From positions 337,102 through 401,101 of the forward strand of contig JAZJZE010000001.1 of the NCBI GenBank assembly GCA_040390065.1: a stretch of 64,000 nt of DNA, in the 5' to 3' direction. The stretch's first letter is position 1. Every line of letters begins with the position of its first letter. Both the position numbers and the translations under genes were made by a program. Positions 52-30,936 of this stretch are shown in pieces. This stretch comes from a bacterium. Its GTDB lineage: Archaea; Thermoplasmatota; E2; JACPAO01; JAHFTW01. Below the pieces are notes generated by a model, which saw nothing but the letters and a program-made list of their open reading frames with translations, ran no database searches and had not been told where the DNA came from.

Positions 52-2391
52 TCAAGCCCGTCCGGCGTTAGAGGCTTGCCGGCCCTTCGGGGGGCCTGGC
101 GCGGCCGCGAACAGCCACCAGCACGATGGCGACCAGCAGGCCAACCAGGACGAGGGCTGCGCCGCCCAGCACGACCCAGGCGGGGATGCCGGGCGCGGTG
201 GCTGCGGACGTCTCCGGCACGGCCGCCTCGGGGGGTTCATGTCAGATGCCTTGGGCGCGGTGGCTGACGGTGCCGCCGTCGGAGCGGCGACGGCCACCCA
301 GACGGTTTCGACCGCGACGCTGGTGTCCTGGCCGTTGCCGACCTCGAGGGCAAAGCGCAACTGCGTCGCCTGCGACGGAGCGTTGAACGACGGTGTGGCG
401 GAGCTTGCATCGTCCAGGACGACGGCCGGGCCTTCCCACTGGGTCCAGTGGTACGACGTGGCGCCGGTCGAAGCGCTGCCGTCCAGGGCGATGCGCGAGC
501 CGGCGTCGGCGTTCGCTTGGCCAACCACCTGGGCCTGCAGCCCGGAGGCGGTCGGCTGGACGGTGACGGCGACGCCGTCGCTGGCGCCGCGCGAGCCATC
601 CTCGATGGCGACTTCGAGGTAGAACGTCGTCGGTTCCGAGACCGTCGGCGCCTGGAACGTGACGACCGACGTGGTTGCGCCCTGCAAGGCCACGCTAGGG
701 CCCGACGTCTGCGCCCACCGGTATGTGACGCCAGACGCTGCGGTCTGCGCGTGCAGGCTGACCGTGCTGCCGGGGTTGACCATGCGGTCGCGGCCCGCGT
801 CGACGGTCAGCGGGGCCGGAGGCGGCGCGGTCGGCGGCAGGTTGCTGTCAGTTCCCTGCGAACCCGATCCAGACGACGAGCTTGAGGACGAGCCGCCTGC
901 CGAACCGCCGGACCCGCTTGAGCCGCCATTTCCGTTCGACGGATTCGGAGCTGCCACGTGGATCGTACGGCAGCCCTTCGTGCCGACGAGGCCGAGCCGG
1001 TCGTACGGGGTGAGGCACGCGGAGAAGGAGCCGGCATTGCCGTAGATGTGCAACGGCCTGGAGTCGTGCGACAACGCGCCGTCACCGAAGTTCCAGTCCC
1101 AGGCGGACATGACGTCCCCTTGGTCCGGGTCCGTCGAGGAGTCGACGAAGGTGACGGTCTGTCCGGCGACGCCGTCGATGGGGTCTGCGGCGAAGAGCCC
1201 GGTCGGAGGCCGGTCAGGTCCGACAGTGAGCTTGAACGGCGTCGATCCCGTGCAGCCCGCGTCGGAGGCCCTCATCTGCATCGGATAGATGCCTGCGGAC
1301 CCGAGGCCGTCCGTCCACTGGAACGCTCCGGTCGCCGGATTGATGGTCGCGCCCGACGGGATGGTGCCGCCGAGCGAGAACGTCATTGCGTCGTTCTCGA
1401 AGTCCGTGGCCGTGGCCGTGAACTGCAGGACTTGGCCTTCGTTGGCGGTGAAATCGCCCAGGGGCGTGACGACGGGACAGCAGTTGGGGTCGCCGATGGA
1501 GGTCCACGTCTGGGTTGCCGTGTCGGTCGCGCCGAGGCTGTCCGTGATGGTGAGGCTCACCGTCTTTGCGCCGGTTGCCGTGTACGTGTGGGTGGTCGTG
1601 GCGCCGCTTTGCGCCGGTGTCGCGTCGCCGAATGTCCAGGAGGAACTGGTGATGCCGGCCTGCGGGTCCGTCGACGTGCTCGTCGCCGTCACGGTCGAGT
1701 CCTGGCACGTGCCCGGCGAGGTCAAGGAGAAGGAGGCCATGGGGCCGCGCTGGGCGCATGACAGTTGCACGTTGTCGATGAGGACGCCCGCATTGTCGCT
1801 CGACGCCCCAGGCTCGGGGAGGTTCTGGAAACCGATGGCGTAGGTGCCTGCCGCGTTGACCTTGAAGGTCGGCGCAAGCGTCACGGTGCCCCACGCGGCT
1901 TGGTATGCGATGGGCGCCGTGGACGTTGCTGCCGGCAAGGGACGGGCGATGGAGGCGACCGGGATGATGTACGCGCGCAGGGTGTCGGTGGGTGAGAAGG
2001 CGCGCTGCGTCCCCGCCTCACTGAAGCTGAGGGTGAACTGGCCCGTCGGGAAGGTCATCGTGTGGTAGAAGAATCCGGCCTGGTTGCTGGAGCCGTCCAA
2101 GTCGACGAACTTGCCGGTCGTCGTCGCGGCGAAGGTCGCCCCTGGCGCAGTGAAGTCCGCATCCGCGGCCAGCGTGTAGAAGTCCACGGAGCCGCTGAAG
2201 ACCTGCCAGTTGAGCCACGAGGTCTTGCCAAGCTCCTTGGTCCCGCTTGCCGGTGTATCGCCTTCGAAGTTGTCGGAAAACGTCGAGAAGCCCATGCAGT
2301 CGCCACCGGCCTGCGCCGCGCTTTCCGTCACGGCAAGTCCCAATCCAAGCATGAGCATGGCCAAGCATACGCTGACCCAACGAGAAACCAC
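52..2391 (-). CDS. Secreted PKD-domain surface protein; C-terminal membrane anchor is out of frame
   Basis: GTG start and signal peptide (VVSRWVSVCLAMLMLGLGLAVTESAAQA). Two PKD-like modules (WTFGD..HTY, WNFGDG..HIY), a Ser/Gly linker, and two C-terminal repeats paralogous to those of 16650..20099. A TM helix plus basic tail is encoded in another frame at 68..241. Confidence 0.8.
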   Translation of the reverse strand: MVSRWVSVCLAMLMLGLGLAVTESAAQAGGDCMGFSTFSDNFEGDTPASGTKELGKTSWLNWQVFSGSVDFYTLAADADFTAPGATFAATTTGKFVDLDGSSNQAGFFYHTMTFPTGQFTLSFSEAGTQRAFSPTDTLRAYIIPVASIARPLPAATSTAPIAYQAAWGTVTLAPTFKVNAAGTYAIGFQNLPEPGASSDNAGVLIDNVQLSCAQRGPMASFSLTSPGTCQDSTVTATSTSTDPQAGITSSSWTFGDATPAQSGATTTHTYTATGAKTVSLTITDSLGATDTATQTWTSIGDPNCCPVVTPLGDFTANEGQVLQFTATATDFENDAMTFSLGGTIPSGATINPATGAFQWTDGLGSAGIYPMQMRASDAGCTGSTPFKLTVGPDRPPTGLFAADPIDGVAGQTVTFVDSSTDPDQGDVMSAWDWNFGDGALSHDSRPLHIYGNAGSFSACLTPYDRLGLVGTKGCRTIHVAAPNPSNGNGGSSGSGGSAGGSSSSSSSGSGSQGTDSNLPPTAPPPAPLTVDAGRDRMVNPGSTVSLHAQTAASGVTYRWAQTSGPSVALQGATTSVVTFQAPTVSEPTTFYLEVAIEDGSRGASDGVAVTVQPTASGLQAQVVGQANADAGSRIALDGSASTGATSYHWTQWEGPAVVLDDASSATPSFNAPSQATQLRFALEVGNGQDTSVAVETVWVAVAAPTAAPSATAPKASDMNPPRRPCRRRPQPPRPASPPGSCWAAQPSSWLACWSPSCWWLFAAAPGPPKGRQASNAGRA

Positions 2392-2524
2392 ATTTTTTCG
2401 ACACAGACGCAGTACTAGAGGTTTGGGTTGGTCGGTTGCCTCGTCGGTCTATGGATCGCCCGCCACTTCACCAAGGGCCGGCCAGCGGCGTGGCCGGGTC
2501 TGGCGGGGCGCCGTTGTTGCGAGT

Positions 2525-2998
2525 TCAGTTGTGGCCCTGCGTGCCGGGGCAAGCCCAAAGGACGTTCCAGCCGTATTGGTATAGGAGCAGTTCGCAGACC
2601 AGGAGCTGGCCATTCGACAGGCCGTTGGTCGTCCAGGTCACCGTTGCGTTGCGGTCGAAGGCCATGCTCGCCGGCCACTGCATGAACGACGCACAGTCCT
2701 GCGGCACTTGTTCCTGGCCGGCTTGGGCGAGGCAGCGGAGCGCGAGGCCCATGGTCGAGCAGGGGGTCGTGACGATAATCCAGCGGCCGTTCTGGGGATC
2801 GAAGACGCGGGCGTAGTGCTCGCCGCCCGAGCCCCCGGTCTGGACGAAATCGGCGCCGGGTGCAGGGTACGGTTGCTCCGCCGGCTGGGTGGTCACGCAC
2901 TTCGTGTCCGGTGAGCTGGGCGGTGGCGGTCCAGCCCAGGCGGGCGTGGCGGCGAGCAGGACGATGGCGAGGCTGGCGATTGCATACAGGCGTTTCAT
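2525..2998 (-). CDS. Small secreted Cys-containing protein, unknown function
   Basis: Internal ATG at 2998 gives MKRLYAIASLAIVLLAATPAWA signal peptide. 4-nt ATGA overlap with the upstream gene. The longer ORF-track N-terminus is Arg-rich junk. Confidence 0.6.
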   Translation of the reverse strand: MKRLYAIASLAIVLLAATPAWAGPPPPSSPDTKCVTTQPAEQPYPAPGADFVQTGGSGGEHYARVFDPQNGRWIIVTTPCSTMGLALRCLAQAGQEQVPQDCASFMQWPASMAFDRNATVTWTTNGLSNGQLLVCELLLYQYGWNVLWACPGTQGHN

Positions 2999-3765
2999 GC
3001 GTTTTCCTCCGAGACGAAGATCCAGTGATAATCGGCGTCGACCGAGTAAGCGGCCACGGGCGCCATTCCGGCGGGGGCGGCGGCAACGGTGTTGGGCAAG
3101 GTGCCTTGCAGGCTTCCCGCGAGGCTCACGTCGCCGACCCCTTCGCGCGTGCTGGAGTCGAATGCGCCTGCCAGCCCGAGGCCCTGCCCGTGCATGCGCC
3201 AGTCGGCGGACGCCGTGTTGTGGCGCGCAGTCACGCCGCCCAGTCGCAGGTCGAGACTGCCGCCTGCAGTGTCTTGCACGGACCAATGCGCGAGGGCGCT
3301 GTCGGCGCTGCGGTCGATGGTGGCTTGCTGGACGTTGAAGCCGAGCTCGCCCCAGCGGGCGGCCAGCAGCGCATTGTCGACGTAGCCTTCGAGCAGGAAC
3401 AGGTCGGGCGGTCGGCTAGCGTCTGGCGGCGCGACCACGGCGACGAAGGTCATGACGATCCGCACCGTTTCCAGCACGGTGGCGTTGTCGAGCGCCGCGG
3501 ATTTGCACTCGCCGAACCGGGTCGAGACCGGATACACGTTCTCGGTCGTCGGATCGTAGGAGCGCAAGGAGTAGCCGGGGGGCAGGCGGGAGCGCACCGC
3601 GGCCGCGTCGACGGAGTAGGCGGCGTCGATTGCGGTACATCCCTGCAACCAGAAGTCCGCGCCGCGGCCATGGCAGTCCTCGCAGGCCTGGGCCAGAGGC
3701 AGGCGGTCCGGGGGGGTTGCGCATCCGGCCAGGAGCAGGCAGGCAAGTGCCACGCCCAGTCTCAC
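2995..3765 (-). CDS. Lipoprotein, unknown function
   Basis: MRLGVALACLLLAGC lipobox-type signal. 4-nt overlaps with both neighbours suggest an operon with 3762..5384. Confidence 0.65.
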   Translation of the reverse strand: MRLGVALACLLLAGCATPPDRLPLAQACEDCHGRGADFWLQGCTAIDAAYSVDAAAVRSRLPPGYSLRSYDPTTENVYPVSTRFGECKSAALDNATVLETVRIVMTFVAVVAPPDASRPPDLFLLEGYVDNALLAARWGELGFNVQQATIDRSADSALAHWSVQDTAGGSLDLRLGGVTARHNTASADWRMHGQGLGLAGAFDSSTREGVGDVSLAGSLQGTLPNTVAAAPAGMAPVAAYSVDADYHWIFVSEENA

Positions 3766-5384
3766 GTCGAGGCCTCCGCCGTGGCCTCGCGGGTCGGGGG
3801 CGACAGGGTGGGGGCCGGAATGGCGGCGGGCGAGTCGACGGGCAAGGCCGCCATCCCGGCAGCCACGCGCCAGGCGACGGCACGGCCGTGTGCCACGCGC
3901 TCAAGCACGCCTTCCTCTTCCAGCAGCCGCGCGTGGTACAGGACCAGCGGATGCGACGTCACGGCCAGCCCCTGTTCCGTCCAGCTTTGGCGCAACCCTG
4001 CGTAGTCGATGGGCAGGGCGGATTGTCGCACGCCATTGTAGATGCGGGCCCGGATTGGATTGTGCAGGAGCGCCATGGCTTCGAGGTTGGCGGGCGGCGG
4101 ATGCGCTCCACCGGCGTGCAGGAGTTCGGTCATGCCATCGAGCCGGCCGCCGATGGCTTTGGCTCGTTGCAGGACGCGTACATGGAAACGGGTGGTGCTC
4201 TTGCTGAGTCCCAGGTGGCGAGCCATGTCGCCGATGGAGGAGCCTGGCCGGCGCGCGACCTCGCGCAGGATCTCGGCGCGGGCCGGATGCGTGGTGGCGT
4301 TGCGGCGGTGCGCCACGGCCAGTGCGACGAGGGCGGGGCCGCGCAGGATGAGGGCGCCAAGCCCAACGCCCGCCAGGAGCGTGGCGCCCGTGGCCAGCGC
4401 ACTGCGGGAACCGAAGGCTGCGGCGCCGCCGACGCCCAGGTACGTCACGTTGCCAGCAAGGCTCCAATGGGAGGCCGTCTGCTCGTACGAGGCAGCGATG
4501 TGGAGGTCGCCGATCGCCTGGAACATGGCGGTGTCGGCGTCGTAGGATTGCGGTCCGATGTCGACCGCGCCCGTGACGCCCGTGAGCGCCATGTCGCCAA
4601 CGGCGCGGCCGTCGAGGCTCGCGACACAGTGCCGCCAGGTGCCGGCAAATGCTGCATTGGCGGCGCCCGCTTTGGCAATCGCGACGACTTCGTGCCGCAC
4701 GAGGCCGGGGCCGTCGTGGTTGGTGCCGGTCGTGGCAGCACCGGAAGACCATGCCATGGTCCCGCCGTGCAGAAGGACGGTGAGGCCACCGGAGGCTGAT
4801 GGGATGGCCGACGGACCAAGATCGGCGATGCCGCAGGCCCCGGCCGGCGTCGTCGCGGTGGCGTCGGTGTCTGGCAGGTAGCGGCCCTCCGTGAAGCCGG
4901 GCAGCGTGAATGGTTCGAGGCGCTGGTCGCCTTGGGCCTGCAGGGCGCCGACGTAAGGCGCCGACGACAGGAACGGTACGACGAGAAGGGTCGCAGGCAC
5001 GGCCGGAGTACCCTGCGGGAAGAAAGACAGGTTGGGCGCGTCGCCCTCCGCAAGGACGGTTGGTGTCAGGGGTACACTTGTCGACGGCGTCGTCGTCTCC
5101 AAGTAGTCGAAGCGCACGACGCGATAGTGCCAAGCACCCGATGCATCTAGGGCTTTGAGGCCGTCCCCGGCGCCGAGGAGAAGGCTGGCGCGCAGATGGG
5201 CTTCGCCGGAAACCTTGCCGTGCAGGGTCCACGAACCCGTCGCCACGACTTGGCCCTCCAGGTGCCCCGAATCGGCTGCGGCGGGGACCGGGGCGGCCAT
5301 CAGGGCGACCACGGCGAGGCATGCCCCCACGACAGCGAATGCGCCGGTCCGACCGTGCACGAGCTTCCCACCAAATCGAGGCAT
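3762..5384 (-). CDS. Membrane-tethered transcription regulator: signal/TM, ~330-aa extracytoplasmic domain, TM, cytoplasmic double winged-helix (ArsR/TrmB-like)
   Basis: ATG start. N-terminal hydrophobic AFAVVGACLAVVALMAAPVPAAA, second TM ATGATLLAGVGLGALIL followed by HRRN. HTH-like SIGDMARHLGLSKSTTRFHVRVLQRAKAI and a second wHTH-like unit (LVLYHARLLEEEGVLERV). Confidence 0.7.
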   Translation of the reverse strand: MPRFGGKLVHGRTGAFAVVGACLAVVALMAAPVPAAADSGHLEGQVVATGSWTLHGKVSGEAHLRASLLLGAGDGLKALDASGAWHYRVVRFDYLETTTPSTSVPLTPTVLAEGDAPNLSFFPQGTPAVPATLLVVPFLSSAPYVGALQAQGDQRLEPFTLPGFTEGRYLPDTDATATTPAGACGIADLGPSAIPSASGGLTVLLHGGTMAWSSGAATTGTNHDGPGLVRHEVVAIAKAGAANAAFAGTWRHCVASLDGRAVGDMALTGVTGAVDIGPQSYDADTAMFQAIGDLHIAASYEQTASHWSLAGNVTYLGVGGAAAFGSRSALATGATLLAGVGLGALILRGPALVALAVAHRRNATTHPARAEILREVARRPGSSIGDMARHLGLSKSTTRFHVRVLQRAKAIGGRLDGMTELLHAGGAHPPPANLEAMALLHNPIRARIYNGVRQSALPIDYAGLRQSWTEQGLAVTSHPLVLYHARLLEEEGVLERVAHGRAVAWRVAAGMAALPVDSPAAIPAPTLSPPTREATAEAST

Positions 5385-5518
5385 TTATCACCTGTGGCGT
5401 ACGGTTGTTGAACTCGGCCTCTTTCGGCCCAACGTATCTAGACAATAGTGCCCGGATTGGGCCCGCCCTGCCGTGTTTCGCAGTAGCCGTTCCGTTTCGG
5501 GCTTGATGGCCGCGGCGC

Positions 5519-7453
5519 ATGCCACACTTCCCCGTGGGCCCCGCTTCCCGCTGCCCTTGCAGCTTCGGGCATGGACATGGTCCCGACAAACGTCAAGACC
5601 AGGGCCCGAATCGTCACCCTGTGGCTGTCCGCCTGGTGGTTGCATCCCTCGTCCTCTCGGCGGCCGTCGCGGGCGCTGCCCTTCCGGCCCCATCACCCTC
5701 GTTTGCCGGGGGGTCGGCGTACTCGCTGCACATCGTCTGCCCGACGTCGAGTGCCCTGCAGTTCAGCTCCTACTCGCGACCGACCTGTCCCGTCCGCATG
5801 GTGGATACGTCCGAGATGCTTGGCGACCCCGCCTTGGCCATCGACCCGATGGACGGCAACAACCTGGCCATGGCGATGATCCACGGTGCGGTCGACGGCG
5901 GCGGCCCCACGGTGCGCAGTCGCATCGGCCTGCCCTTTACGACGTTCACGTCCAACGACGCAGGTGCCACGTGGGACGACGCCTTTTACCAGTCGCCGCA
6001 GGACCTCGGCAACGCATACGGCGAGCATTCCGCTGCGGCCGTCGACCCGTACGGTCACGTCTACGTCGGTTCCACGTACGCGGTGGGCGAAAGGGGCGGC
6101 CCGTTCCGCTACACGATCGGCGCGCAGAAGTTCGACAGCGTCGAGCAGGTGCGGCAGAAGCAGACGGGTGCCGACGGCTCGTACAACCTCGTCTACGTCG
6201 ACCCGGTGTTCAAGGGCGGGAAGATCCGCCAGACGTGGTTCCTGTTCAACGCGGCCACGGACAACATGACCATGGTGTGGTTCGAGGACCGGGGCAACGC
6301 GCCGTCCGGGTCGGCCACGGTACCCGGCGACGCCCCGCAGGCGGATGCCGATTCCTTGGATGTCCTTCCCGGCTACGCAGCGCGTCGACTTGCGCCGCCG
6401 CCCCACTCGTCACCGCCAGCCAGCAGCGTGGCGCCGCGTGGAACGATCGGCATCGTGTGGACGGGCGTCGGTGACAACGACACGTATCGCCGCCAACCCG
6501 TCGAGTGGTCCATCGGGCCGTGCAGCGGTGCAACGAATCCGGTGCTCTTCGAAGGCTGGCTGTACGTCGGCTGCCAGGCCGACCCGAAGCAGGGGGCGTT
6601 CCCATGGCATCCGGAGACCCAGCCGGGCACGGTGGAGCTGTTTCGCATGGACCCCGACGGCGGCAAGCCCGTCTACATGGGGGCCAGTCCCATCGTTGGC
6701 GGCGCGCCAAAGCTGGGCGTGCGTTCGGATGGCCGGCTTGCCCTGTTGTCGGCCGGCGTCTCCTCGGCCAACGGCTTGGACCTCACTGGCGTCTTCGGGC
6801 ACTACTCCGACGGACGCATCGACTGGACTGGCGTGCACTCGTACTCGGACGGCGTCACTCCTCTGGCCCGCGATGAACGCATCCTGCGCGCCAACATCCA
6901 GGACGTCCTGTACCGCGAGTACTCGGGCGTCGTGCACCTCATCCTGCGCGAGACCATCGAACCGGTGGGCATCGACGCCGTGCAGAAATCCATCGGCCCC
7001 AAGATCCGCAAGTGCTTCGTCGCCTTGGACGAGGATGGCGTCCTGGCCGTGCACCGACTCGACATCGGCAACGTGCTCAACAAGACGGACCCGTTCCTGA
7101 ACTCGCAGCCCGAGATGGCCTACGAGGACTTGAGCGACGACATCGTGCAACTCCCCGCCGCGCCCTTCACGTACAACGGCAAGGACCTTGGCGACACGTA
7201 CCAGCGGGAATTCTTCGCCGTCGGCGACTACGGCGAGGCCATCTTCGCGGAGGTCGTGGAAGTGACCGACCTGCGCTTCGTCCCGCCCGTCCCCGTCATC
7301 GCGGCCGCCCCTGGCATCCCCGCAGCCGCCGCGTCCGGAACGAGCAGCGCGCTCGGAGCCGTCGTCGGCGTCACCACCGGGGCCCTGCTGTTGGCCATGA
7401 TCGCGGCGGGCCGAAAAACGGCGGTCGGCAGCATGGCGAAGATGCGCAAGTGA
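5519..7453 (+). CDS. BNR/Asp-box beta-propeller (sialidase-like fold) surface protein with C-terminal TM anchor
   Basis: Asp-box SNDAGATW. Signal-like VAVRLVVASLVLSAAVAGA (a GTG at 5621 is a plausible alternative start). C-terminal ALGAVVGVTTGALLLAMIAAGRK anchor. Confidence 0.7.
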   Translation: MPHFPVGPASRCPCSFGHGHGPDKRQDQGPNRHPVAVRLVVASLVLSAAVAGAALPAPSPSFAGGSAYSLHIVCPTSSALQFSSYSRPTCPVRMVDTSEMLGDPALAIDPMDGNNLAMAMIHGAVDGGGPTVRSRIGLPFTTFTSNDAGATWDDAFYQSPQDLGNAYGEHSAAAVDPYGHVYVGSTYAVGERGGPFRYTIGAQKFDSVEQVRQKQTGADGSYNLVYVDPVFKGGKIRQTWFLFNAATDNMTMVWFEDRGNAPSGSATVPGDAPQADADSLDVLPGYAARRLAPPPHSSPPASSVAPRGTIGIVWTGVGDNDTYRRQPVEWSIGPCSGATNPVLFEGWLYVGCQADPKQGAFPWHPETQPGTVELFRMDPDGGKPVYMGASPIVGGAPKLGVRSDGRLALLSAGVSSANGLDLTGVFGHYSDGRIDWTGVHSYSDGVTPLARDERILRANIQDVLYREYSGVVHLILRETIEPVGIDAVQKSIGPKIRKCFVALDEDGVLAVHRLDIGNVLNKTDPFLNSQPEMAYEDLSDDIVQLPAAPFTYNGKDLGDTYQREFFAVGDYGEAIFAEVVEVTDLRFVPPVPVIAAAPGIPAAAASGTSSALGAVVGVTTGALLLAMIAAGRKTAVGSMAKMRK

Positions 7454-7611
7454 GGGGCGTCGGAAGCCGCCGTGGCCATGCGGCGGCTGACGGGCCGCGA
7501 TGCAACGCAAAGACCATGCCATCGAGACATGCAATCGGTGGGCGCCGCCGGACACGCCCCGTGGCGCGAACGGTGAAACAACGCAATCCAGCAACGCCGT
7601 CGTCCAGGCGG

Positions 7612-8193
7612 CTAGTATCCAACAGCCCCGCCGCGGATCCTGGGCCGTGGTCCGACCGTGTCCTCGCGGGGCGGGCCGCGCCATGTTCGCCAATGGAGCG
7701 CCACGTCCGTCGGTGTGAAGGAAAGACTGACTGTCATGACGAGCGGCGTCTCTTGCGTCCGCTCCATCCAAGCGCGAATCCATTTGGCTTCTGCGACGTC
7801 CTGTTTCATGTGCATGAGGGCACGGCCCCGCCAAACCTTCCATTCGATGACGGCCAACGGAAAATGGGTTGGCGTCCAGCTCGTGCCGCCCGACTCCCAT
7901 GCGGTGCCATACGGTTCGGGCCAGATGACCAGGTCCTTCGCGATGGCGGCTTTCCGCTTGCCGTTCGTGGCGACGCCGTTGGGGATGCTGACCTCGATTC
8001 CGATCTGGCCGACGTCCTGCAGCGGGCTCCCGGCATGACCAACCTTGGGCAACAGGTGGCGGAAAACGAAGCGATTGACGGCCTCGCGTTCCCGCCCAAC
8101 CCATCCGTCGCCCGCGGCATCCGCCACGAATTCCTGGAGTGCCTCTATGATGACAGTCTGCAGGGTGCGGCAGGATTCGGGGTCGCCCGCCAT
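7612..8193 (-). CDS. Hypothetical protein with PD-(D/E)xK nuclease-like motif
   Basis: ATG at 8193 (MAGDPESCRTLQ..). Motif series IGIEVSI ... KDLVIW ... AVIEWKV resembles the E / D / ExK restriction-endonuclease fold. Lies next to the tRNA-Leu att-like repeats. Confidence 0.5.
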   Translation of the reverse strand: MAGDPESCRTLQTVIIEALQEFVADAAGDGWVGREREAVNRFVFRHLLPKVGHAGSPLQDVGQIGIEVSIPNGVATNGKRKAAIAKDLVIWPEPYGTAWESGGTSWTPTHFPLAVIEWKVWRGRALMHMKQDVAEAKWIRAWMERTQETPLVMTVSLSFTPTDVALHWRTWRGPPREDTVGPRPRIRGGAVGY

Positions 8194-8273
8194 GGGGGAA
8201 TGCCCGGGCGTGCTGCCAGCCACGCTCGGCCAAAGGGGAGCTCCACCATGAGGTTGACGCAACCTCGCGAGCC

Positions 8274-8631
8274 CGCAGCGTTCCTCGCCGCTTCGCGGCA
8301 TCGGCAAACCTGTCCTGGCACCTACGACGTGCTCGCTTCGCTCGCGGTCTCAGTGCACAGGACAGGATTTGGCGCTGCGGCCGCGCAGGCGCAGCCGCAG
8401 CGTTCCTCGCCGCTTCGCGGCATCGGCAAACCCTGCCCATGCACCTGTCTGTCGCCGGCGGGCGCTCGGCGCCGCCGATGCGACGCGACTTAGTGCACAG
8501 GACAGGATTTGGCGCTGCGGCCGCGCAGGCGCAGCCGCAGCGTTCCTCGCCGCTTCGCGGCATCGGCAAACCCTGCCCATGCACCTGTCTGTCGCCGGCG
8601 GGCGCTAGGCGCCGCCGATGCGACGCGACTT
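8274..8631. repeat. Tandem 140-bp repeat (2 full units plus a diverged partial unit), each unit ending in the 3' end of tRNA-Leu
   Basis: AGTGCACAGGACAGGATTT at 8352-8370, 8492-8510 and, in the real tRNA, 8632-8650. Units 8352-8491 and 8492-8631 are nearly identical by eye. Confidence 0.85.
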
Positions 8632-8633
8632 AG

Positions 8634-8715
8634 TGCACAGGACAGGATTTGAACCTGCGAACCACAAAGGAGAAGGCCCTGAACCTTCCGTCGTTGGCCA
8701 CTTGACTACCTGTGC
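8634..8715 (-). tRNA. tRNA-Leu (anticodon CAG), type II, no intron, no encoded CCA
   Basis: Manual cloverleaf: acceptor GCACAGG/CCTGTGC, D arm GTC..GAC, anticodon arm GAAGG-TTCAGGG-CCTTC, long variable arm, T arm GCAGG-TTCAAAT-CCTGT, discriminator A. Confidence 0.85.
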
Positions 8716-8792
8716 ATTTGGGGAAAAGGGCCAGCCCTTGCGGAGGGCTGCATCCGGCCGACTTCAGGTTGGCACTTGAGGGTTGCGCCCAG

Positions 8793-8910
8793 GCGAACCA
8801 CAAAGGGGAAGGCCGTAGCCCTCGGGCCATCAGGTCCGAGGGCGCGACGTGGACGCCGCGAAGCGGCGGCCCGGCCAACCTTCCGTCGTTGGCCACTTGA
8901 CTACCTGTGC
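8793..8910 (-). pseudogene. Truncated, disrupted copy of the tRNA-Leu 5' part
   Basis: The first 34 nt and the next 22 nt (1 mismatch) match the tRNA. The CAG triplet is replaced by a 62-nt two-hairpin insert (8815-8876). No T arm or 3' acceptor strand follows. Confidence 0.75.
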
Positions 8911-8950
8911 AGACGGTTGGGAAGAGGGGAGAAGTGGATTCCCTTGAACC

Positions 8951-9745
8951 TTACATCTCGAGTTCGCCGATGGCGTCCGCGAAGCGCTTGAAGCGCTCGC
9001 CCAGGAGGTCGAGGGCCTTCATGAGGGCGTCCTCGGCCTTGAGCGACCCGTCCGTCTCGAAGCGGAAGATGAACTTGCGGTCGTCGTAGGTGATCTTGAG
9101 GCCGCCCTGCGTCAGCTTCTCGGCTTCGTCCGCGCGGTTGATCTCCTCGGGCTGCAGGATGACGAGCTTGCCGCCATCGAGTCCCAGGATCCCCGCAGGC
9201 GTGCGGGCGACGGCTTCCTTGGCCGCCTCGGGCTTGATCTTGCGATTGTCCAACGTCGCCGTCGGGTAGTACTTGTAGCCGACCGCGGAGCAGACTTGCC
9301 ACTTTGCGTGCTGCGTGCCGTCGCCGAGGATGGCTTCGGCCTCGAGGATGAGGCGCTGGCCTTCCAGGAGGTCAACGAGCGGGACCTTCGCGTCCACGAT
9401 GCTGAACTTCTTGTCCTCGGGCTCGAGGTCGCCGGAGTACACCGTGCACGGGCCCTCCTTGGTGAGGGTGTAGCGCACGAGGTACGTCGGCTTGCCTTCG
9501 GCGTCGACTTGGCCCTTCATGTTGAGCGTGGAGGGGTCGGTCGGCACCGGCAGCAGGCCGATGCGGTGGGCCAGGATCTCGTCGAAGAGCGCGGAGGTGT
9601 TGTCGTAGAACGTCACCTTGTCGATGGCGAGCTTGGGCACTTCCGACAACAGGACGCGGCGCAGGGCATTGACGAAGTACGGGTGAACGCCGTCGATGAC
9701 GAGCTTGCACTCGCGGTCCGTGACGTTGCGAATCTCGATCTTCAT
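8951..9745 (-). CDS. rpoD: DNA-directed RNA polymerase subunit D (Rpo3)
   Basis: MKIEIRNVTDRECKLVIDGVHPYFVNALRRVLLSEVP. Last gene of the S13-S4-S11-RpoD block. A GTG at 9754 is an alternative start. Confidence 0.9.
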   Translation of the reverse strand: MKIEIRNVTDRECKLVIDGVHPYFVNALRRVLLSEVPKLAIDKVTFYDNTSALFDEILAHRIGLLPVPTDPSTLNMKGQVDAEGKPTYLVRYTLTKEGPCTVYSGDLEPEDKKFSIVDAKVPLVDLLEGQRLILEAEAILGDGTQHAKWQVCSAVGYKYYPTATLDNRKIKPEAAKEAVARTPAGILGLDGGKLVILQPEEINRADEAEKLTQGGLKITYDDRKFIFRFETDGSLKAEDALMKALDLLGERFKRFADAIGELEM

Positions 9746-9754
9746 GTCAAGCAC

Positions 9755-10144
9755 CTACACGCGCCGGCCGCGGCGGCCACCCTTCTTGCGGCAGCCGTCG
9801 TGCGGGATGGGAGTGACGTCCTCGATGCGGCCGACCATGATGCCGTTGCGTGCCAGGCCGCGGATGGCGGCTTGGGCGCCGGGGCCGGGGCTGCGGGCCT
9901 TGTTGCCGCCGTAGCCGCGCACGCGGATGTCGACCGTCGTGAAGCCTTTCTCCTTCAGGGCCTCGGCGATGCGCTGGGCGCACGCCATGGCTGCGAAGGG
10001 ACCGCCCTTGTCCTTGTCGGACTTGACGGCCATGCCGCCCGAGGCCTTCGCCACCGTCTCGGCGCCCGTGGCGTCGGTGACGGTGATGAGCACGTTGTTG
10101 TAGCTCGCGAAGATGTGCGCGATGCCGCGCTTGTCGGCGCTCAT
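9755..10144 (-). CDS. rps11: 30S ribosomal protein S11 (uS11)
   Basis: [33 protein letters not shown]; operon position. Confidence 0.95.
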
Positions 10145-10746
10145 GCACTACCTCCCGGACCGGTGGCGCCGGCCGGGGCCGGAGCCTCCGCCAGCGACGG
10201 CGCCGGCGTCTCGAAGCCCTGCGCCTTGGGGCGCACGGGGTGGTTCTCGTCGGCGATGGCGGCGGTGGGGTCGATCATGATCTGTTCCTCTTCGCCGCGG
10301 CGCACGACGTACGACGGCACCGTCACGCGGCGGTCGCCAATCTTGATGTTGCCGTGGCTCACGAACTGGCGCGCCTGCTTGGGCGTGCGGGCCAATCCCT
10401 TGAGGTAGACCTGCGTCTGGAGGCGGCGGTTGAGGACGCGCTCCAGATCCAGGCCCAGCACTTCGTTGAGCGTCGCGTTGTCGCCGAGGTAGCCGCTGCG
10501 CTGCAGGCGGGCGATGAGCAGGCGCGACTCAGTCACGGCCTGTTCGTCCGCCGGGTTGCGCGTGCGGGCGATGAGGGCACGGGCCTGGCCGCGCACGTCG
10601 CGCAGGATGGTCTGGGCCTTCCAGATCTCGGTCTTGTTCTTGAGACCGTACTTGGACTTGACTTCGTTCTCCGCTTTGATGCGTTCGCCTTGCCACGGGT
10701 GGCTCGGCGTGTCGTAGTGGCGGCGGTTGAATTTGGGCTGGCCCAT
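10141..10746 (-). CDS. rps4: 30S ribosomal protein S4 (uS4)
   Basis: [23 protein letters not shown].., S4 domain [26 protein letters not shown]. Confidence 0.95.
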
Positions 10747-21270: not shown

Positions 21271-22413
21271 ATGCCTTTGGGCCTGCGTCGCGTCGTGCCG
21301 GCTGCCATCCTGGTCGCCCTCCTCGCCGGGCCGTCCACGGGGCTGGCCCCGACATCGGCGTTGCAGCCGCCCGACGTCGAGTCGTTCTGCGACATGCACA
21401 CCAAGCACTGCGAGCCCGTGCCCCTCGACCTGAGGCAATGGCTGGTCCCGCAGAGCCAACCGATGTCGCAGACGTCGGATTCCGACACACAGCGCTGGCT
21501 CGTGGCGCCGATCCGTGGCTACCTCACGCACGACGAATACCAGATCATCCAAGGCCTGGTGCCGGACATCCCGACTGTGCCGCTCGCAGCACCGCCGGGG
21601 GCCATCAACGAGACAGTCGGGGAAAACGTGACGGTGCACAAGGAGGTTGCCGGCATCACGCTGGACGGCCAGGCCACGCTCAGCGCCACCGTGCTCGTCC
21701 CGCTGCCGCCGGAGCAAGGAGAGGCCCCCGCGGGGTCCGTCCCTTGCACCGACCCGCGCGGCTGTCCTGACCTGACGGTCGACGCCGCCCGGCTTGCCGA
21801 CGGCATCCTCGAGAAGCGCACGTTCACGTCGTCGTCGTGCGCCGTCGTCGAGAACAGCACGTCGCCCGGAACGCGCCGACTCCTGCGTTTCACCTTCGCG
21901 ACGCCGAACATCGGCGACGGCGACCTGCTCATCGGGGACCCCGCCGAGCATCCCTCCTGGTTCCAGTGGGGTGCGTGCCATGGCCATTGGCACTTCAGGC
22001 AGTACGCCGAGTATCGTCTTTGGACGCTGCGGGCGTACGTCGCGTGGCGCCACGCCCGCGACGCCGCCCCGACCGCCACGGCGGCGCAAGTCCTGGCGCA
22101 GCATCCGGAGCTGGCTGCGGGCTTCCTCAGTGGGCACAAGCAGGGATTCTGCGCCATCGATGTCGTGCCCTACGCGCCGCTCGAAGCCCCGCGATACCAA
22201 TCGTGTGCCACCCACCAGGGGATCTCGCGCGGCTGGGCGGACGAGTATGGCTACGCGCTCGACGGCCAGTGGGTGGACATGACCGGCGTGGCGGCCGGCG
22301 CGTACGTGCTCGAAGCGGAAGTGAACCCCGCGCGCTTCTACCAAGAGACGGTGTACACGAACAATTCGGGGGCGCTGCTCGTCGTCATCCCGCCCGACAC
22401 CCCTATCGTGTGA
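21271..22413 (+). CDS. Lysyl oxidase-like copper amine oxidase (LOX family), secreted
   Basis: Collinear with the animal LOX catalytic domain: RRLLRFTF.., WFQWGACHGHWH (cf. WEWHSCHQHYH), GHKQGFCAIDV (cf. GHKASFCLEDT), QGISRGWADEYGYALDGQWVDMTGV..YVLEAEVNP..YTNN. N-terminal signal peptide. Confidence 0.85.
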   Translation: MPLGLRRVVPAAILVALLAGPSTGLAPTSALQPPDVESFCDMHTKHCEPVPLDLRQWLVPQSQPMSQTSDSDTQRWLVAPIRGYLTHDEYQIIQGLVPDIPTVPLAAPPGAINETVGENVTVHKEVAGITLDGQATLSATVLVPLPPEQGEAPAGSVPCTDPRGCPDLTVDAARLADGILEKRTFTSSSCAVVENSTSPGTRRLLRFTFATPNIGDGDLLIGDPAEHPSWFQWGACHGHWHFRQYAEYRLWTLRAYVAWRHARDAAPTATAAQVLAQHPELAAGFLSGHKQGFCAIDVVPYAPLEAPRYQSCATHQGISRGWADEYGYALDGQWVDMTGVAAGAYVLEAEVNPARFYQETVYTNNSGALLVVIPPDTPIV

Positions 22414-26700: not shown

Positions 26701-27228
26701 TCTCCACTCCACTACGAACTCCAGGTGTCGGGGCCCGGCGGCAACGCGCAGCAGACCTCCATGGACGGCATGGTCATCCTTCCCGCGGAAGGAACATGGC
26801 AAGTCCGTGGGCGCGCATCCGACGCCGCCGGAAATGCACAATCAATCGGCCCGTGGACCGTCGTGGTGGACGGCACGCCGCCGACGGTCTCGGTGGCGTG
26901 GCAGGGCGACGACTTCCGTCTCACCGCCAGCGACGCGGGAGGCCTCGCCCATGTGGCCATGACGGCTGGCGACGGCCGGCCCATCGAGTCGAACGCGACC
27001 GGCACCTCGGCGGCGTCGGATGGCCGCTGGGAGGGCGCCCCCATCGGGGTCAACGTCCGCGACGCGGCCGGAAACGAACTGTCGGGTTTCATTGCAGAGT
27101 CCGGCGGCCAACTCGTCGCGTCGGCGCCGGAAAAGCCGGCGGGGAAGTCGACGCCGGCACTGCCCCTCGCGCTGGTCGGCCTGGCCGTGCTGGGCCTTGC
27201 CCTAGGCCGGAGGCGCCAGGATGGCTGA
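23719..27228 (+). CDS. Large envelope protein: signal peptide, helical ectodomain, TM-basic loop-TM hairpin, beta-propeller-like region, Ig-like repeats, C-terminal TM anchor
   Basis: ATG start. LAALVALLVLPALPAEA signal. Internal AAMWIGLACAGVALVGGLWWRGRRRSGGRKGKALLGLLALLMVLPPVQGALG. Tail LPLALVGLAVLGLALGRRR. Confidence 0.8.
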   Translation: MSTAAFPMTGPTTTSRRPSGAILAALVALLVLPALPAEAATPQDVWVQATDAVVARAPASLLDEPDFRNASAHHAYRTAMLDASVAHATALAHALWEEAQNAPNPAQQYLYELANETQANAGRIDHASARMAALEAGDLHANQLEILLTAANVLADAEQEHVHAVGYLMPEQSVDVFRSETGRYSFAHPVAMAGDLAAATERILDLVPAPSGPRADLAGMAQRINGLSLPTFQWPVAHPGIVEETARRIYAYSALQGNTTVAELDAVIQQLPAERQRLQDAGYDGVHIVEVQGDASWWLTQARADPDSAVTAGVVRSQAAYAHGAILEANLLAAPANRPSSAAMWIGLACAGVALVGGLWWRGRRRSGGRKGKALLGLLALLMVLPPVQGALGMAAVNDPSAPPTVVPGPEGGAWGSAAALANGTLLFAWPSCPGTFVDGCSDLYLRMYDPVADKWSASWRAVDDLYHVSIAKVFLVGADVHVVWEEQLGNATAPVVLVHCVLSGRTCGARETFTDTAGTAIMFSGAVGGNGHLRIAYLRSDLMQVHVREWSSAGWGADKRFDTGSSLQTRPNVLCGTDGACYVTWEEGVPGSKETKDRRVELAIVDAGADVARKVITVPAQGSFQQMAAAFPIPEGVGALYGTQRDLFFAVLDPATGQWSAATNVSRGHPPTAPALVGAYTLGGGDVLAVWQTGTVNTFQMWAARRSGGFWLAPELLVGKPYQEHMFVPMAQPQASGDLVLAWTGNGPGIADNILLTRRIAGGTAPPPGPPTVTWREPRAGGWTGSAVDLAAQLEFAATPDAASVVLTVDGRALATTLSPDGHAHARATGLAEGAHHVTLHAADRLGAACDEQWDFAVDATAPALSVQIVGPATSASAPWANQVLTVVASAPQDGGSPVHLQVDHDAAGDWRDATAAGWKAVGLVPSIIGAAVPENRLLDVRLRAVDDAGNVALGSPMALGWDATPPLMQGGPAPTTRPGRVPLLLTDQAAAGSPLHYELQVSGPGGNAQQTSMDGMVILPAEGTWQVRGRASDAAGNAQSIGPWTVVVDGTPPTVSVAWQGDDFRLTASDAGGLAHVAMTAGDGRPIESNATGTSAASDGRWEGAPIGVNVRDAAGNELSGFIAESGGQLVASAPEKPAGKSTPALPLALVGLAVLGLALGRRRQDG

Positions 27229-27901
27229 CCCCGTGGAAAACGGCAATCCAGGCAGGGCGGAAGGTCCCGGGGCGAGCCCTGGTCCCCACCATTGGACGCG
27301 ACGCAACTCGCCCTCCCCCCGAAAGGCTGAAACACATGCACGCCTCTCCCGGAATGTGGTCGTGCCCGGTCTCCTGGTCCAGGATAGCGCGGGCCGGCCC
27401 TCCGCCGACGGCGAAGTGACCCGCCGACTCGCAGTCGTCGCCCGGATCCTCGCCGAGCAGCCCGGCTGCACGATCCAGGAAGTCGCACTCCAGCTGCAGT
27501 GCAGCCACACGACGGCCGCGTATCACCTCTCCAAGATGGCCGCGGCGGGCCGCGTCCTGCAGCGCCGCGAAGGAAGGGTCGTGCGCCACTACTTGGCCGG
27601 CGATGAGACGCCCGCCGCCTGGCTGCGCGCGTTTGTCGCGGAACCCAAGCGCCGCGAGCTTGCGGTCACCCTCGGCGGCACCGAACGCCGCGAATGGCCG
27701 GTGAACAAGCTTGCCCGCCACATCGGAATGCATCACGGATGGGTCATGCGATCGCTGCGCATGCTCGAGACGCAGCGCTTCATCGTCCTCATTCGGCCCC
27801 GCGCCAGGTATTACGTGCAACGGACCGCCGCGTTGCAGCAGGCGCTGCAAGAGGCGCAAACGGTTCGCGTTGTCGTCGAAGTCGTGACGGACCCGTCGTA
27901 G
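27221..27901 (+). CDS. Double winged-helix transcription regulator (ArsR/TrmB-like), soluble
   Basis: ATGGCTGA start/stop overlap with 23719..27228. HTH units TIQEVALQLQCSHTTAAYHLSKMAAAGRV and PVNKLARHIGMHHGWVMRSLRMLETQRFIV. Confidence 0.7.
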   Translation: MADPVENGNPGRAEGPGASPGPHHWTRRNSPSPRKAETHARLSRNVVVPGLLVQDSAGRPSADGEVTRRLAVVARILAEQPGCTIQEVALQLQCSHTTAAYHLSKMAAAGRVLQRREGRVVRHYLAGDETPAAWLRAFVAEPKRRELAVTLGGTERREWPVNKLARHIGMHHGWVMRSLRMLETQRFIVLIRPRARYYVQRTAALQQALQEAQTVRVVVEVVTDPS

Positions 27902-27966: not shown

Positions 27967-28241
27967 CTAGAGGTCATTGCATAACCTCCAGGAGGTCTGC
28001 GCGCGCCGGTTTGCAAGGAGTGCTAGGAGGTTGGGCCGACTTCGTGGCAGCGCCACGACGAGGTCCAGGCGACGACGCAATCCGCCGCAAAGCGGCGCGC
28101 CCTTGCGGGTCGTTTTCCGGCCACACACTCCTGGCGCCGGCGGTCTTGGCGGACTTCCGGCCCGCCGGCGACCGCCCCCGCCAGGATCGCGAAGGCCGGA
28201 AAACGACGCAGGCACCCTGGAAGCTATGCAATGACCTCTAG
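27967..28241. mobile_element. MITE-like element, 275 bp, ~26-bp terminal inverted repeats
   Basis: Left end CTAGAGGTCATTGCATAACCTCCAGG. Reverse complement of right end CTAGAGGTCATTGCATAGCTTCCAGG (24/26 match). No ORF of transposase size. Sits between convergent genes. Confidence 0.7.
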
Positions 28242-29743
28242 TGTTCGCTTCGTCGTGGGCGGCGCGACGGCCAGCCCCCAAGCAGGCTACGCAGAGCTGG
28301 ATCGCCCTCTGCGTCTTCGTGGAGGGTCGGGTCATGGCGGCGAGCGATGTCCAGCCAGGCGAGCGCGTCGTCGCGCAGGTCCAATCGGGCGAAGGTGCGC
28401 GCAGCCGTCAAGGCGTTGCTTGCCATCGCCTCTCCTTCATCGGCCGGGAACCGACGCTGCGCCTCTTGGTGGTCGCGGCGGGCCAGGTCGGCCTTTCCCA
28501 AGGCGCCATGGCAGCGGGCCCGCACTGCGTACGCGTCAGCGCACGATGGATCGAGTCGGATGGCCCGCGTGGCCCAGCGCCGCGCCTGTCGCCAGGCGGA
28601 ATCCTCCGCACTCGTGTGCGCGTGGGCCAATGCCCGGGAGGCGGCGGCGCGGCGGCGCGGACTCACGCGGGTCGGCAGGCGACGCCGCAGCAGGGCGGCG
28701 ATTGCGATTGCCACGAGAGCGGCGCCTAGAAGGTCAAGCCATAGCCATCCAGCGGGTCCAGGCGACGTGGCCATCGTCGCTGGGGACGTGGGGCCGGCCG
28801 TCTGCCCCGAGACCGCTACCGGGATGCCCGATTGAGCGGGGCCTGCCCGCAGCTTGAGGCTGCCCTCGAGGTGGAGGGTCAGACCGCCAACCGGCCCAGC
28901 CACCCCATCGCGCACGAGCGTGCCGACCGGGTTGTGCAGGTCGAGGCGGCCTTGGACGACCATCTCTGGCTGCTGCACGTAGACGAAGGCGATGTCGCCC
29001 AACTCGCTGGGGACGGTGAGCGCGCCGTGGGTGACTTCGAGGAATGCTTCCTGGTCGCGGGTCGCCCCGGGGTCCGCGCTCGGCCCGGCAAGGGGTTGCA
29101 TGCCCGTCGGAATGGAAACCCTTCCTTCCAGACTGTCGAGTTGCACGTCCCACTGCCAAAGGGCCAGGACGAAGTCTCCGGTGATGGTCGCGTTGGCAGG
29201 CGCGCACGGCTGCATGTGCACGGCTGCCTGGACGTCCGCCGTCAGCGTCGCGTGGACGCCGAGTTGGGAACTGTAGGTGAGGCTCTGGGCGTTCGTCGGC
29301 CGAGCGACGTTGCAGGTGATGGAATCGGTCCAGACTGGGGGCGCGTGGCCGGGCATCGGCTGCACGACGAACCAGTAGCCAGGTCGGTTCACGATTCCCG
29401 TGACGCTCGCAGCGTGGTAGTCGTTCTCGCTGTGATGGCGCCCCTGGGGCTGGCTCGCGATGATGCCGTGGACGACGATGTCCGCTTCGTCCACGACCAG
29501 GTGCAGGGCGTCTGCCCGCAGGGAGAAGGGCGACGAGGCCTGGGCATTGCTTGGGGCTCCTACAGGGACGTTGCCGCCCGAGGCCAACTCGAACGCACCC
29601 AGCGGGCCGCTTGTCGCGGTGAGGCCCGTGAGGTCGGCTTGGCTGACGGTCAGGGACCCCTGCACGTCGCTAGCCTCGGCAAGGCCGGCCATCGCAAGGA
29701 CAGCACAAATCAAGGCGGCGGGGAGGAGAGCGCGGGCCGTCAC
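28238..29743 (-). CDS. Single-pass membrane protein: extracytoplasmic domain plus cytoplasmic TPR-like repeats
   Basis: GTG at 29743, 7 nt after the stop of the upstream gene, gives (M)TARALLPAALICAVLAMAGLAEA signal. TM GWLWLDLLGAALVAIAIAALLRRR. C-terminal TPR-like helices (AYAVRARCHGALGKADLARRDHQEAQR). Confidence 0.7.
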   Translation of the reverse strand: MTARALLPAALICAVLAMAGLAEASDVQGSLTVSQADLTGLTATSGPLGAFELASGGNVPVGAPSNAQASSPFSLRADALHLVVDEADIVVHGIIASQPQGRHHSENDYHAASVTGIVNRPGYWFVVQPMPGHAPPVWTDSITCNVARPTNAQSLTYSSQLGVHATLTADVQAAVHMQPCAPANATITGDFVLALWQWDVQLDSLEGRVSIPTGMQPLAGPSADPGATRDQEAFLEVTHGALTVPSELGDIAFVYVQQPEMVVQGRLDLHNPVGTLVRDGVAGPVGGLTLHLEGSLKLRAGPAQSGIPVAVSGQTAGPTSPATMATSPGPAGWLWLDLLGAALVAIAIAALLRRRLPTRVSPRRRAAASRALAHAHTSAEDSAWRQARRWATRAIRLDPSCADAYAVRARCHGALGKADLARRDHQEAQRRFPADEGEAMASNALTAARTFARLDLRDDALAWLDIARRHDPTLHEDAEGDPALRSLLGGWPSRRPRRSEH

Positions 29744-29750
29744 GAGGCGA

Positions 29751-30375: not shown

Positions 30376-30936
30376 GTGGTCTTCGGCCGCGTGGTGGTGC
30401 CGGGACCTTCGAGTCGACATCGGCTACGCAAGCCGAACGTGAATCGCAACCGCATCGAGGACACGGTCCGGCGCAGTCCGGGTGTCACCAAGAGCGAGTT
30501 GGCGCGCCTTTTGGGGCTTGGCTGGGGGACCATCTCCCATCACTTGGCCTTCCTCGAAAGCCAGGGCATCGTTGCGGCGTTCCCCGTCGGCAAGGGCGTA
30601 CGCCTGTACCCGGCTGGGCGCCCCGAGGCCCGTCTTCTCGCCGTCCTGTCGGATGGTCCCGGCGCCGCGCTCACGGCATTGCTGGCGCACCGCCCCGGCC
30701 AGACGCTCAGCGACCTGAGCCGCGGCCTCGGAATCTCCCGCAAGATCGTCCGCCGCCACCTCGGGCAGTTGGGCCGCGAGGGACTCGTCGGCGAGGCCGG
30801 CATGCACCGGCGCCGCTACTTCCTCCATGAAGGCGCGGCCGAGCGGGCCCAAGGCCTGCCCATCGAGGCTCCGGCGCCGCGCCTCTTCGTCGTCGCGAAC
30901 CAACCGGTGCTCCAGTCGGCAAGTCAGCCGGGGTAA
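30376..30936 (+). CDS. Double winged-helix transcription regulator (ArsR/TrmB-like), soluble
   Basis: HTH units TKSELARLLGLGWGTISHHLAFLESQGIV and TLSDLSRGLGISRKIVRRHLGQLGREGLV. Start uncertain (GTG 30376 or GTG 30439). Confidence 0.7.
   Translation: MVFGRVVVPGPSSRHRLRKPNVNRNRIEDTVRRSPGVTKSELARLLGLGWGTISHHLAFLESQGIVAAFPVGKGVRLYPAGRPEARLLAVLSDGPGAALTALLAHRPGQTLSDLSRGLGISRKIVRRHLGQLGREGLVGEAGMHRRRYFLHEGAAERAQGLPIEAPAPRLFVVANQPVLQSASQPG

Follow-up and report, generated by a model that had tools for sequence, protein, structure and literature searches.

Proteins that combine a DNA-binding domain with a membrane-spanning region in one polypeptide are known as transmembrane transcription regulators (TTRs), of which 1,384 have been predicted in 367 archaeal species, with most archaeal genomes having them at about four per genome (Demey et al. 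2023, PMC10269533). As given in the introduction of the same paper, the known archaeal functions of membrane-bound regulators concern the control of motility and pilin genes, and those studied experimentally include the one-component regulators ArnR and ArnR1 from Sulfolobus acidocaldarius (PMC6396743). In the ToxRS and TcpPH systems, the membrane regulator is controlled by a co-transcribed extracytoplasmic partner (PMC11323476, PMC5430869). Here, we analyzed a 64,000-nucleotide stretch of DNA from a Thermoplasmatota archaeon (contig JAZJZE010000001.1, positions 337,102 to 401,101; assembly GCA_040390065.1), hereafter the window, in which gene A encodes a membrane-tethered regulator with two winged helix-turn-helix (wHTH) units, and is followed by the genes for a predicted lipoprotein (B) and a small secreted protein (C). 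This A cassette is a conserved and unannotated module of the Thermoplasmatota that unites a novel sensor domain with tandem ArsR-like units as its output and with a lipoprotein partner of its own, within an already known class of regulators. An earlier note on this DNA, made from the sequence alone, had described such an arrangement as rare in archaea, and while the predicted TTR numbers speak against this for the class, the known functions are, by that introduction, indeed those of controlling motility and pilin genes. Our literature search found no paper describing the A family or its cassette.

The open reading frame (ORF) of gene A is a real gene, having a third-position GC content (GC3) of 0.81, with the GC bias at this position as in genuine genes (window GC, 68%), and with GGTGAT lying 2 nt ahead of its ATG. 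Kyte-Doolittle hydropathy revealed hydrophobic stretches in protein A at residues 11-39 and 328-358, and no others. From an alignment of 55 family sequences, we obtained an AlphaFold model with a mean pLDDT of 82 and a pTM of 0.64, the single sequence having given an uninformative model (pLDDT 34). In the family-based model, a helix at residues 12-30 is followed by an all-beta region (40-325), a TM helix (329-348), a juxtamembrane helix (351-359), and two winged helices (367-424 and 443-507), both of which are complete. At the N-terminus, Lys and Arg residues precede the first hydrophobic stretch and the sequence PVPAAA/DSG comes after it, and residues 12-36 are probably a Sec signal peptide, for which the alternative would be an N-in anchor, with cleavage also probable from the AxA-like motif. 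The second segment is a Gly/Ala-rich helix that leads into R348-G-P and then into a short helix terminating in HRRN. Across the 55 family members, a TM segment is located just before the HTH in 53, and an N-terminal hydrophobic segment is found in 44, several of the remaining ones looking N-terminally truncated. Moreover, the 15 residues after the TM segment contain on average 3.0 Lys and Arg residues versus 1.1 before it. Such a positive-inside bias is what winged helices located in the cytoplasm would lead one to expect, and it is from hydropathy, this charge bias, and the model that we strongly infer such a placement. In its outline, then, the architecture put forward in the earlier note (an N-terminal signal or TM segment, a large outside domain, a second TM segment, and two wHTH units) holds, though the outside domain measures about 290 rather than about 330 residues. 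Neither of the outcomes that the note named as refuting it was obtained, as a second TM segment is present and HTH models do match the C-terminal region. Likewise, the HRRN motif is present as claimed, but the membrane flank itself is R348-G-P, and a short helix intervenes before the motif is reached.

The DNA-binding character of the C-terminal region is apparent from Pfam, as residues 365-410 score above the cut-offs for HTH_20 (36.4 bits against 27), HTH_24 (28.7 against 21.9), and HTH_5 (26.3 against 22), with HTH_20 being matched by all 55 family members. For this first unit, the best sequence matches in the PDB were YgaV, ArsR, and Rv0081, and single-unit matches from Foldseek included ArsR (6j05), SmtB, and CzrA, with a TMt of 0.6-0.7 for the ArsR/SmtB proteins. 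No second HTH in A was detected by Pfam. However, when the two units were compared across the family, hhalign gave a probability of 98.9% (E 1.5e-17, 62 columns), which identifies unit 2 as a duplicate of unit 1 that has since diverged. In the model, this second unit consists of helices at residues 443-454, 461-470, and 478-490 and a wing at 494-507, and a weak match to ArsR (6j0e) across residues 440-509 emerged from the PDB sequence search. Both units display a His and a Leu at typical ArsR recognition-helix positions (H401/L405 and H484/L488), which are 74-98% conserved. We considered, and rejected, that A is a bona fide ArsR/SmtB metalloregulator, as the NCBIfam HTH_metalloreg model gave only 30.6 bits against a cut-off of 55, residues 360-540 contain no Cys, and the units are fused to each other and anchored in the membrane.

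When alignments over about 150-160 columns were considered, Foldseek returned proteins with tandem winged helices, these being ScpB (3w6j), TFIIIC, RPC62, SelB, and MarR-type proteins of phages. Foremost among them was ScpB (E 2.4e-4), which, along with the winged-helix arrays of TFIIIC, RPC62, and SelB, would suit a role in which the tandem winged helices of A are not a sequence-specific transcription factor, but a scaffold through which an envelope complex made up of the A ectodomain, B, and C is tethered to the nucleoid or to a partner in the cytoplasm. We regard this as improbable, considering that the TMt values for ScpB, TFIIIC, RPC62, and SelB are low (0.13-0.38) next to those for the ArsR/SmtB repressors, that the repressor families HTH_20, HTH_5, and MarR_2 are matched in all 55 members, that the 25 most frequently matched Pfam families of these members include no ScpB model, and that the ArsR-typical His and Leu residues are conserved. 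As for A being ScpB itself, this was dismissed on a TMt of 0.34, a rmsd of 10 Å, and the lack of ScpB among the Pfam matches of A.

The ectodomain of A, about 290 residues in length, is modeled with unusually long beta strands, and the confidence is high for most 10-residue blocks (pLDDT 80-97), being lower near residues 161-200. Conserved in this domain are W250, G263, G292, W307, and G311. None of the 55 family members has a Pfam match in the ectodomain, and when the whole A model was compared by Foldseek with the PDB and BFVD, nothing credible for this domain was found among the 50 matches listed per library. Here, a few of the listed alignments, namely those with herpesvirus gB and some uncharacterized phage proteins, extended beyond the cytoplasmic part, but had probabilities of at most 0.16 and were judged to be noise. 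By hhalign, the ectodomain shows neither an internal repeat nor a relation to lipoprotein B, and a search of the window with the family profile revealed no second copy of it. The coordinates of these and the other features are listed in Table 1.

Table 1. Features of gene A, its cassette, and related genes in the window.
Feature	Coordinates	Strand	Description and basis
Gene A, whole ORF including stop	3762..5384	minus	540-aa membrane-tethered tandem-wHTH regulator; ORF list
N-terminal hydrophobic segment, residues 12-36	5277..5351	minus	Hydropathy and model helix; PVPAAA/DSG next
Extracytoplasmic domain, residues 37-328	4401..5276	minus	All-beta, no known family; AlphaFold model
TM helix, residues 329-348, with juxtamembrane helix 351-359 (..AVAHRRN)	4341..4400	minus	Hydropathy, model
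wHTH unit 1, ArsR-like, residues 362-428	4101..4301	minus	Pfam HTH_20 E 5.2e-9; ArsR matches from PDB and Foldseek
wHTH unit 2, diverged duplicate of unit 1, residues 438-510	3855..4073	minus	hhalign, model, Foldseek
Gene B	2995..3765	minus	Predicted lipoprotein of 256 aa; residues 11-15 form the lipobox LLAGC; start overlaps A stop
Gene C	2525..2998	minus	157-aa secreted protein; signal peptide, six Cys; start overlaps B stop
Divergent intergenic region	5385..5518		Between gene A and the gene for a 644-aa membrane-anchored protein (5519..7453, plus); presumed promoter and operator region; sequence
R226, soluble tandem-wHTH protein	27221..27901	plus	226 aa; Pfam HTH_20 at 69-110, weak HTH_Crp_2 at 162-207
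R186, soluble tandem-wHTH protein	30376..30936	plus	Two Pfam HTH stretches; gene oriented divergently to that of a 173-aa protein that matches fn3 weakly

To identify the relatives of A, we relied on an exhaustive HMMER search of 1.84 billion cluster representatives, by which alone the family was found, as a word-index homolog search with either the single protein or the 55-sequence profile returned A itself only. The HMMER search gave 247 matches at E<=1e-3, of which 52 are at E<=1e-10. Most of the stronger matches are 480-660 residues long and align over part of the ectodomain, the TM segment, and both wHTH units. Where an organism is named, it is a metagenome-assembled genome of the Thermoplasmata or Candidatus Thermoplasmatota, and the proteins are annotated as "hypothetical protein", "Helix-turn-helix domain", "predicted transcriptional regulator", or "ArsR family regulator". 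A scan for related loci gave one locus in the genomes and none in the metagenomes. Among the weaker family matches, only the TM segment, a juxtamembrane motif (..Y/F-x-R..L-D/N-H-P-x-R), and the tandem wHTH are retained, whereas the N-terminal regions of these distant relatives, about 240-650 residues following a signal peptide, are unrelated, and Pfam HTH matches occur in both units. A sensor-output design would predict just this, namely one output module combined with outside domains that can be exchanged.

Eight proteins (P0106, P0125, P0146, P0097, P0100, P0104, P0112, and P0085) illustrate this arrangement, sharing the TM segment, the juxtamembrane motif, and the tandem wHTH while differing in their large N-terminal regions. 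The one in P0097 is acidic and of low complexity, the other seven are of an unrecognized type, and P0106 alone has a sub-threshold Ig-like Pfam match. Together, these eight proteins suggest a wider superfamily of type-I membrane-tethered regulators. Separately, we noticed that nine family members (P0009, P0010, P0011, P0012, P0014, P0016, P0018, P0022, and P0024) have a C-terminus that is 40-120 residues longer than in the window A, with the extra segment resembling, by eye only, a third winged helix (e.g., ..LRDLEAFGYVVRD..). In its place, and again by eye, the window A has a Pro/Ala-rich tail.

The second pillar of our description is the conservation of the cassette. That A heads an operon with a lipoprotein and a small secreted protein, as the earlier note proposed, is borne out by the 4-nt overlaps read from the DNA, which are GTGA at 3762-3765 (A/B) and ATGA at 2995-2998 (B/C), and by the recurrence of the cassette in relatives. 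For the latter, we examined eight independent loci with DNA (the window, L002, L003, L005, L007, L008, L009, and L010), as well as the P0018 contig, for which the gene calls and sizes were used. A homolog of B adjoins A in all eight loci with DNA. As in the window, A is followed by two genes in L002 (240 and 219 aa; L001 is syntenic, with B and C identical), L003 (291 and 124 aa; L004, with an identical A, has the same neighbors), L005 (281 and 110 aa), L010 (226 and 169 aa), and, by size, the P0018 contig (289 and 117 aa), and by a single one in L008 (284 aa). The corresponding genes are on the divergent strand in L009 (282 and 128 aa) and L007 (277 aa). Overlaps of 4 nt between start and stop recur in L002, L003, L005, and the P0018 contig, and the latter also has a 159-aa HTH gene divergent from A. 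Moreover, the genes flanking A and B differ entirely from locus to locus (e.g., Lhr helicase with ThrRS, PyrBI, or DNA polymerase B), and the A-B linkage is thus not residual synteny.

Homology among the B proteins is seen in pairwise BLASTP down to E 1e-15, and a profile built from six copies picked up the three unused ones by hmmsearch (E 2.6e-38, 4.2e-31, and 1.6e-20). An (L/S)AGC lipobox is present in eight of the nine homologs, the ninth being a truncated gene call that lacks the N-terminus. In the window, B has a signal peptide ending in a lipobox with the invariant Cys, and lipidation is predicted. Outside the lipoprotein signal region, B has no relative in the PDB, and neither B nor C belongs to a Pfam family. 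C is homologous in sequence to the third gene of L002 (E 7e-8), and its place is taken by a small protein with a signal peptide in L003, L005, L009, and L010 and, judging by size, in the P0018 contig, with 2-7 Cys in the copies read. As the other surface proteins of the window gave no tblastn match in the related loci, there is no conserved regulon beyond B and C.

Such a cassette might also be read in another way, in which A regulates, but B as an envelope lipoprotein and C as a secreted factor are its products only and take no part in sensing. Regulators are often co-transcribed with their targets, the sequence of C varies by locus, and the divergent placement of B in L007 and L009 would suit a target as well as a partner. 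Still, we give this reading only a slight chance, as the 4-nt overlaps in at least five loci suggest stoichiometric co-production, and the A-B linkage survives a complete turnover of the surrounding genes.

Upstream of A, no strong palindrome was found in the window at 5385-5518 at the stringency used for the relatives. In four related loci, however, palindromes are located within AT-richer patches upstream of the A-family genes, and these are ACCAC-N6-GTGGT in L003 (~5895-5914), GTGGTT-N8-AACCAC in L010 (~2974-2996), ATCAAC-N8-GTTGAT in L008 (~4919-4941), and CTACTA-N5-TAGTAG in L002 (~7961-7979). Lying 40-100 nt upstream of A, they are locus-specific and could be regarded as candidate operators.

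Taken as a whole, the A cassette is probably an envelope-sensing switch, uncharacterized so far, but of a kind known in outline. On balance, we favor a reading in which A is a transmembrane one-component regulator whose outside domain, probably with B and C, sets the DNA binding of a cytoplasmic pseudo-dimer. Accordingly worded as a sequence of steps, A would be exported by the Sec pathway, probably with cleavage of the signal peptide, which would leave the all-beta domain outside, and helix 329-348 would cross the membrane once. A linker of about 15 residues would then keep the two ArsR-like units at the cytoplasmic face, where they may act on DNA as a built-in pseudo-dimer. On the outside, the co-translated B and the disulfide-rich C would most likely be partners of the A ectodomain, either as co-sensors or as stabilizers, much like ToxS for ToxR and TcpH for TcpP, and the state of this putative A-B-C complex would determine whether the inside module binds DNA. 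The most likely first target of A would be the A-B-C operon.

Several points weigh against this view. The TM helix, being rich in Gly and Ala, is only moderately hydrophobic, and the topology proposed comes from hydropathy, charge bias, and the model. While C is kept in position, sequence conservation of C is limited to the window and L002, and B and C could simply be regulated cargo instead of partners. Moreover, a shared operator motif was not definable, as the palindromes vary in sequence from one relative to another and none is seen in the window. Lastly, if A stays in the membrane, the short linker leaves little space for DNA to approach it.

This last point bears on a different use of the membrane anchor, namely sequestration, where A would be kept inactive at the membrane and an envelope signal would lead to trimming of the ectodomain and then to an intramembrane cut of the Gly/Ala-rich TM helix, with a soluble tandem wHTH being released. 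We consider this unlikely, and the same goes for its sequel, in which the freed module would resemble R186 and R226 and act on cytoplasmic DNA. In keeping with it are the composition of the TM helix and the R-G-P that follows, the very short distance from the TM helix to the wHTH in the model, and a faint Peptidase_M50 match in a nearby gene of one locus (L003), as well as free-standing proteins homologous to the entire cytoplasmic module, which are found both in this genome and beside A genes. Against these stand the lack of a protease gene conserved in the neighborhoods of the examined loci, the lack of an identified cleavage motif in A, and the helix-breaking residues within the TM segment, which are not conserved across the family.

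The free-standing homologs in question are R226 and R186, for which the earlier note had claimed the same tandem-wHTH layout, and both do match the A-family profile across the tandem region (R226 with E 7.6e-9 at profile positions 374-476 and R186 with E 3e-19), while sharing 29% identity with each other across both units. The R226 ORF overlaps the end of the ORF for a 1169-aa envelope protein by 8 nt (ATGGCTGA), which agrees with the start/stop overlap that had been noted. For R186, there is 34% identity with a gene downstream of the A-family gene in L007, where two soluble tandem-wHTH proteins come after the A-family gene and an overlapping 872-aa envelope protein comes next. Upstream, the same locus (192-9352) also has a predicted lipoprotein, without a recorded Pfam family, in which a subtilisin-like GTSxSxP serine motif was recognized by eye, as well as a second paralog of B, and L007 is on the whole seen as a larger version of the module. 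The shared module and part of the linkage are thus real, whereas the wiring of R226 and R186 to surface-protein genes is putative and read from adjacency, in a region where secreted or membrane proteins are mostly found anyway, with one related locus, L007, showing a similar arrangement. In the window, this region is a 36-kb stretch in which such proteins predominate (PKD, Ig-like, lysyl oxidase, and BNR-like).

As for the wider setting, the window is archaeal and contains RNA polymerase subunit D, S11, S4, and L3 of the archaeal type, and SecY. A 380-aa secreted protein with a lysyl oxidase domain (PF01186, E 1.9e-22), an enzyme uncommon in archaea, is encoded at 21271-22413 on the plus strand. 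A second bitopic protein of 540 residues (28238-29860, minus) has an N-terminal TM segment, about 350 residues outside, another TM segment, and a TPR-like cytoplasmic tail; it belongs to no Pfam family, and its ectodomain, having no match to the family profile, is unrelated to that of gene A. Lipoboxes of the LAGC type occur on many secreted proteins, as in the window at 33880-35640 (minus), in L009 at 7059-10260, and in L007 at 192-1655, and lipoprotein-type anchoring therefore seems common in these Thermoplasmata. Elsewhere, a tandem pair of 140-nt repeats (8349-8488 and 8489-8628; 99% identical) precedes the gene for tRNA-Leu(CAG) at 8633..8715 (minus). Each repeat opens with 31 nt copied from the 3' end of this tRNA, and an exact 35-nt copy of the tRNA 5' part is located at 8877-8911. 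There is also an exact 38-nt repeat with three copies in the window (8273, 8395, and 8535). The tRNA-Leu(CAG) repeats at 8349-8911 have the appearance of att-site scars left repeatedly by integrative elements.

How signals are passed across the archaeal envelope is poorly understood, and A-B-C offers a concrete, conserved module of uncultured Thermoplasmatota that can be put to the test. Should B and C indeed gate A, this would be the first archaeal lipoprotein-coupled transcriptional signaling, and three sets of genes that lack a specific annotation would gain a function, whereas if they do not, A would be one more predicted transmembrane regulator. A further-reaching proposal, which we put forward tentatively and with more doubt than belief, is that A-B-C is a lineage-wide envelope-signaling device of the Thermoplasmatota, wherein B and C gate a type-I tandem-wHTH regulator via a previously unseen all-beta sensor fold, with one output serving many ectodomains. 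As such, it might be an archaeal counterpart of the way in which bacteria sense envelope stress with the help of lipoproteins (ToxRS/TcpPH, Rcs, or sigma-E logic), though built from unrelated parts.

In comparison with described systems, A is like ToxR-ToxS, TcpP-TcpH, and CadC from Vibrio and E. coli in having a membrane-tethered DNA-binding domain and an extracytoplasmic sensor. However, while in those proteins the OmpR-type wHTH is N-terminal and the periplasmic domain C-terminal, in a type II topology, the order in A is signal or TM segment, ectodomain, TM segment, and cytoplasmic wHTH, and the polarity is thus reversed, with the DNA-binding part being C-terminal, ArsR-type, and duplicated. 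Trans_reg_C gave no Pfam match to A at E<=1. The "ToxR/CadC-like" label of the earlier note can therefore be kept as an analogy only, and A was rejected as a member of that family for its reversed polarity and lack of an OmpR-type domain. Nor do the ToxR and CadC sensors or the ToxS and TcpH partners show homology to the A sensor or to B and C. As regards a co-encoded effector of the ToxS or TcpH type, A has the conserved adjoining B and C, which match no known family and whose interaction with A is putative.

With the ArsR/SmtB repressors (YgaV, ArsR, SmtB, and CzrA), A shares the wHTH fold and a sequence signature above the HTH_5 and HTH_20 cut-offs, but these are soluble homodimers of about 100-120 residues with metal or thiol sites, whereas A has two fused units and a membrane anchor. 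ArnR and ArnR1 are, like A, archaeal membrane-bound one-component regulators, though set apart by their description, with ArnR having an N-terminal HTH, C-terminal TM helices, and no large outside domain. The soluble archaeal tandem-wHTH proteins (Pfam HTH_HVO_0163_N and related, including R186 and R226) are homologous over the whole cytoplasmic tandem module of A, but are without the signal peptide, ectodomain, and TM segment. The TTRs, like A, have a DNA-binding domain and at least one TM region in one polypeptide (PMC10269533), and with the HTH_20, HTH_24, and HTH_5 matches above their cut-offs and helices 12-30 and 329-348 predicted from hydropathy and the model, A falls within this operational class. 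What distinguishes the A family from TTRs at large is that its all-beta ectodomain matches no Pfam family, that its tandem ArsR-like output is C-terminal, and that the gene for a lipoprotein partner is conserved with it.

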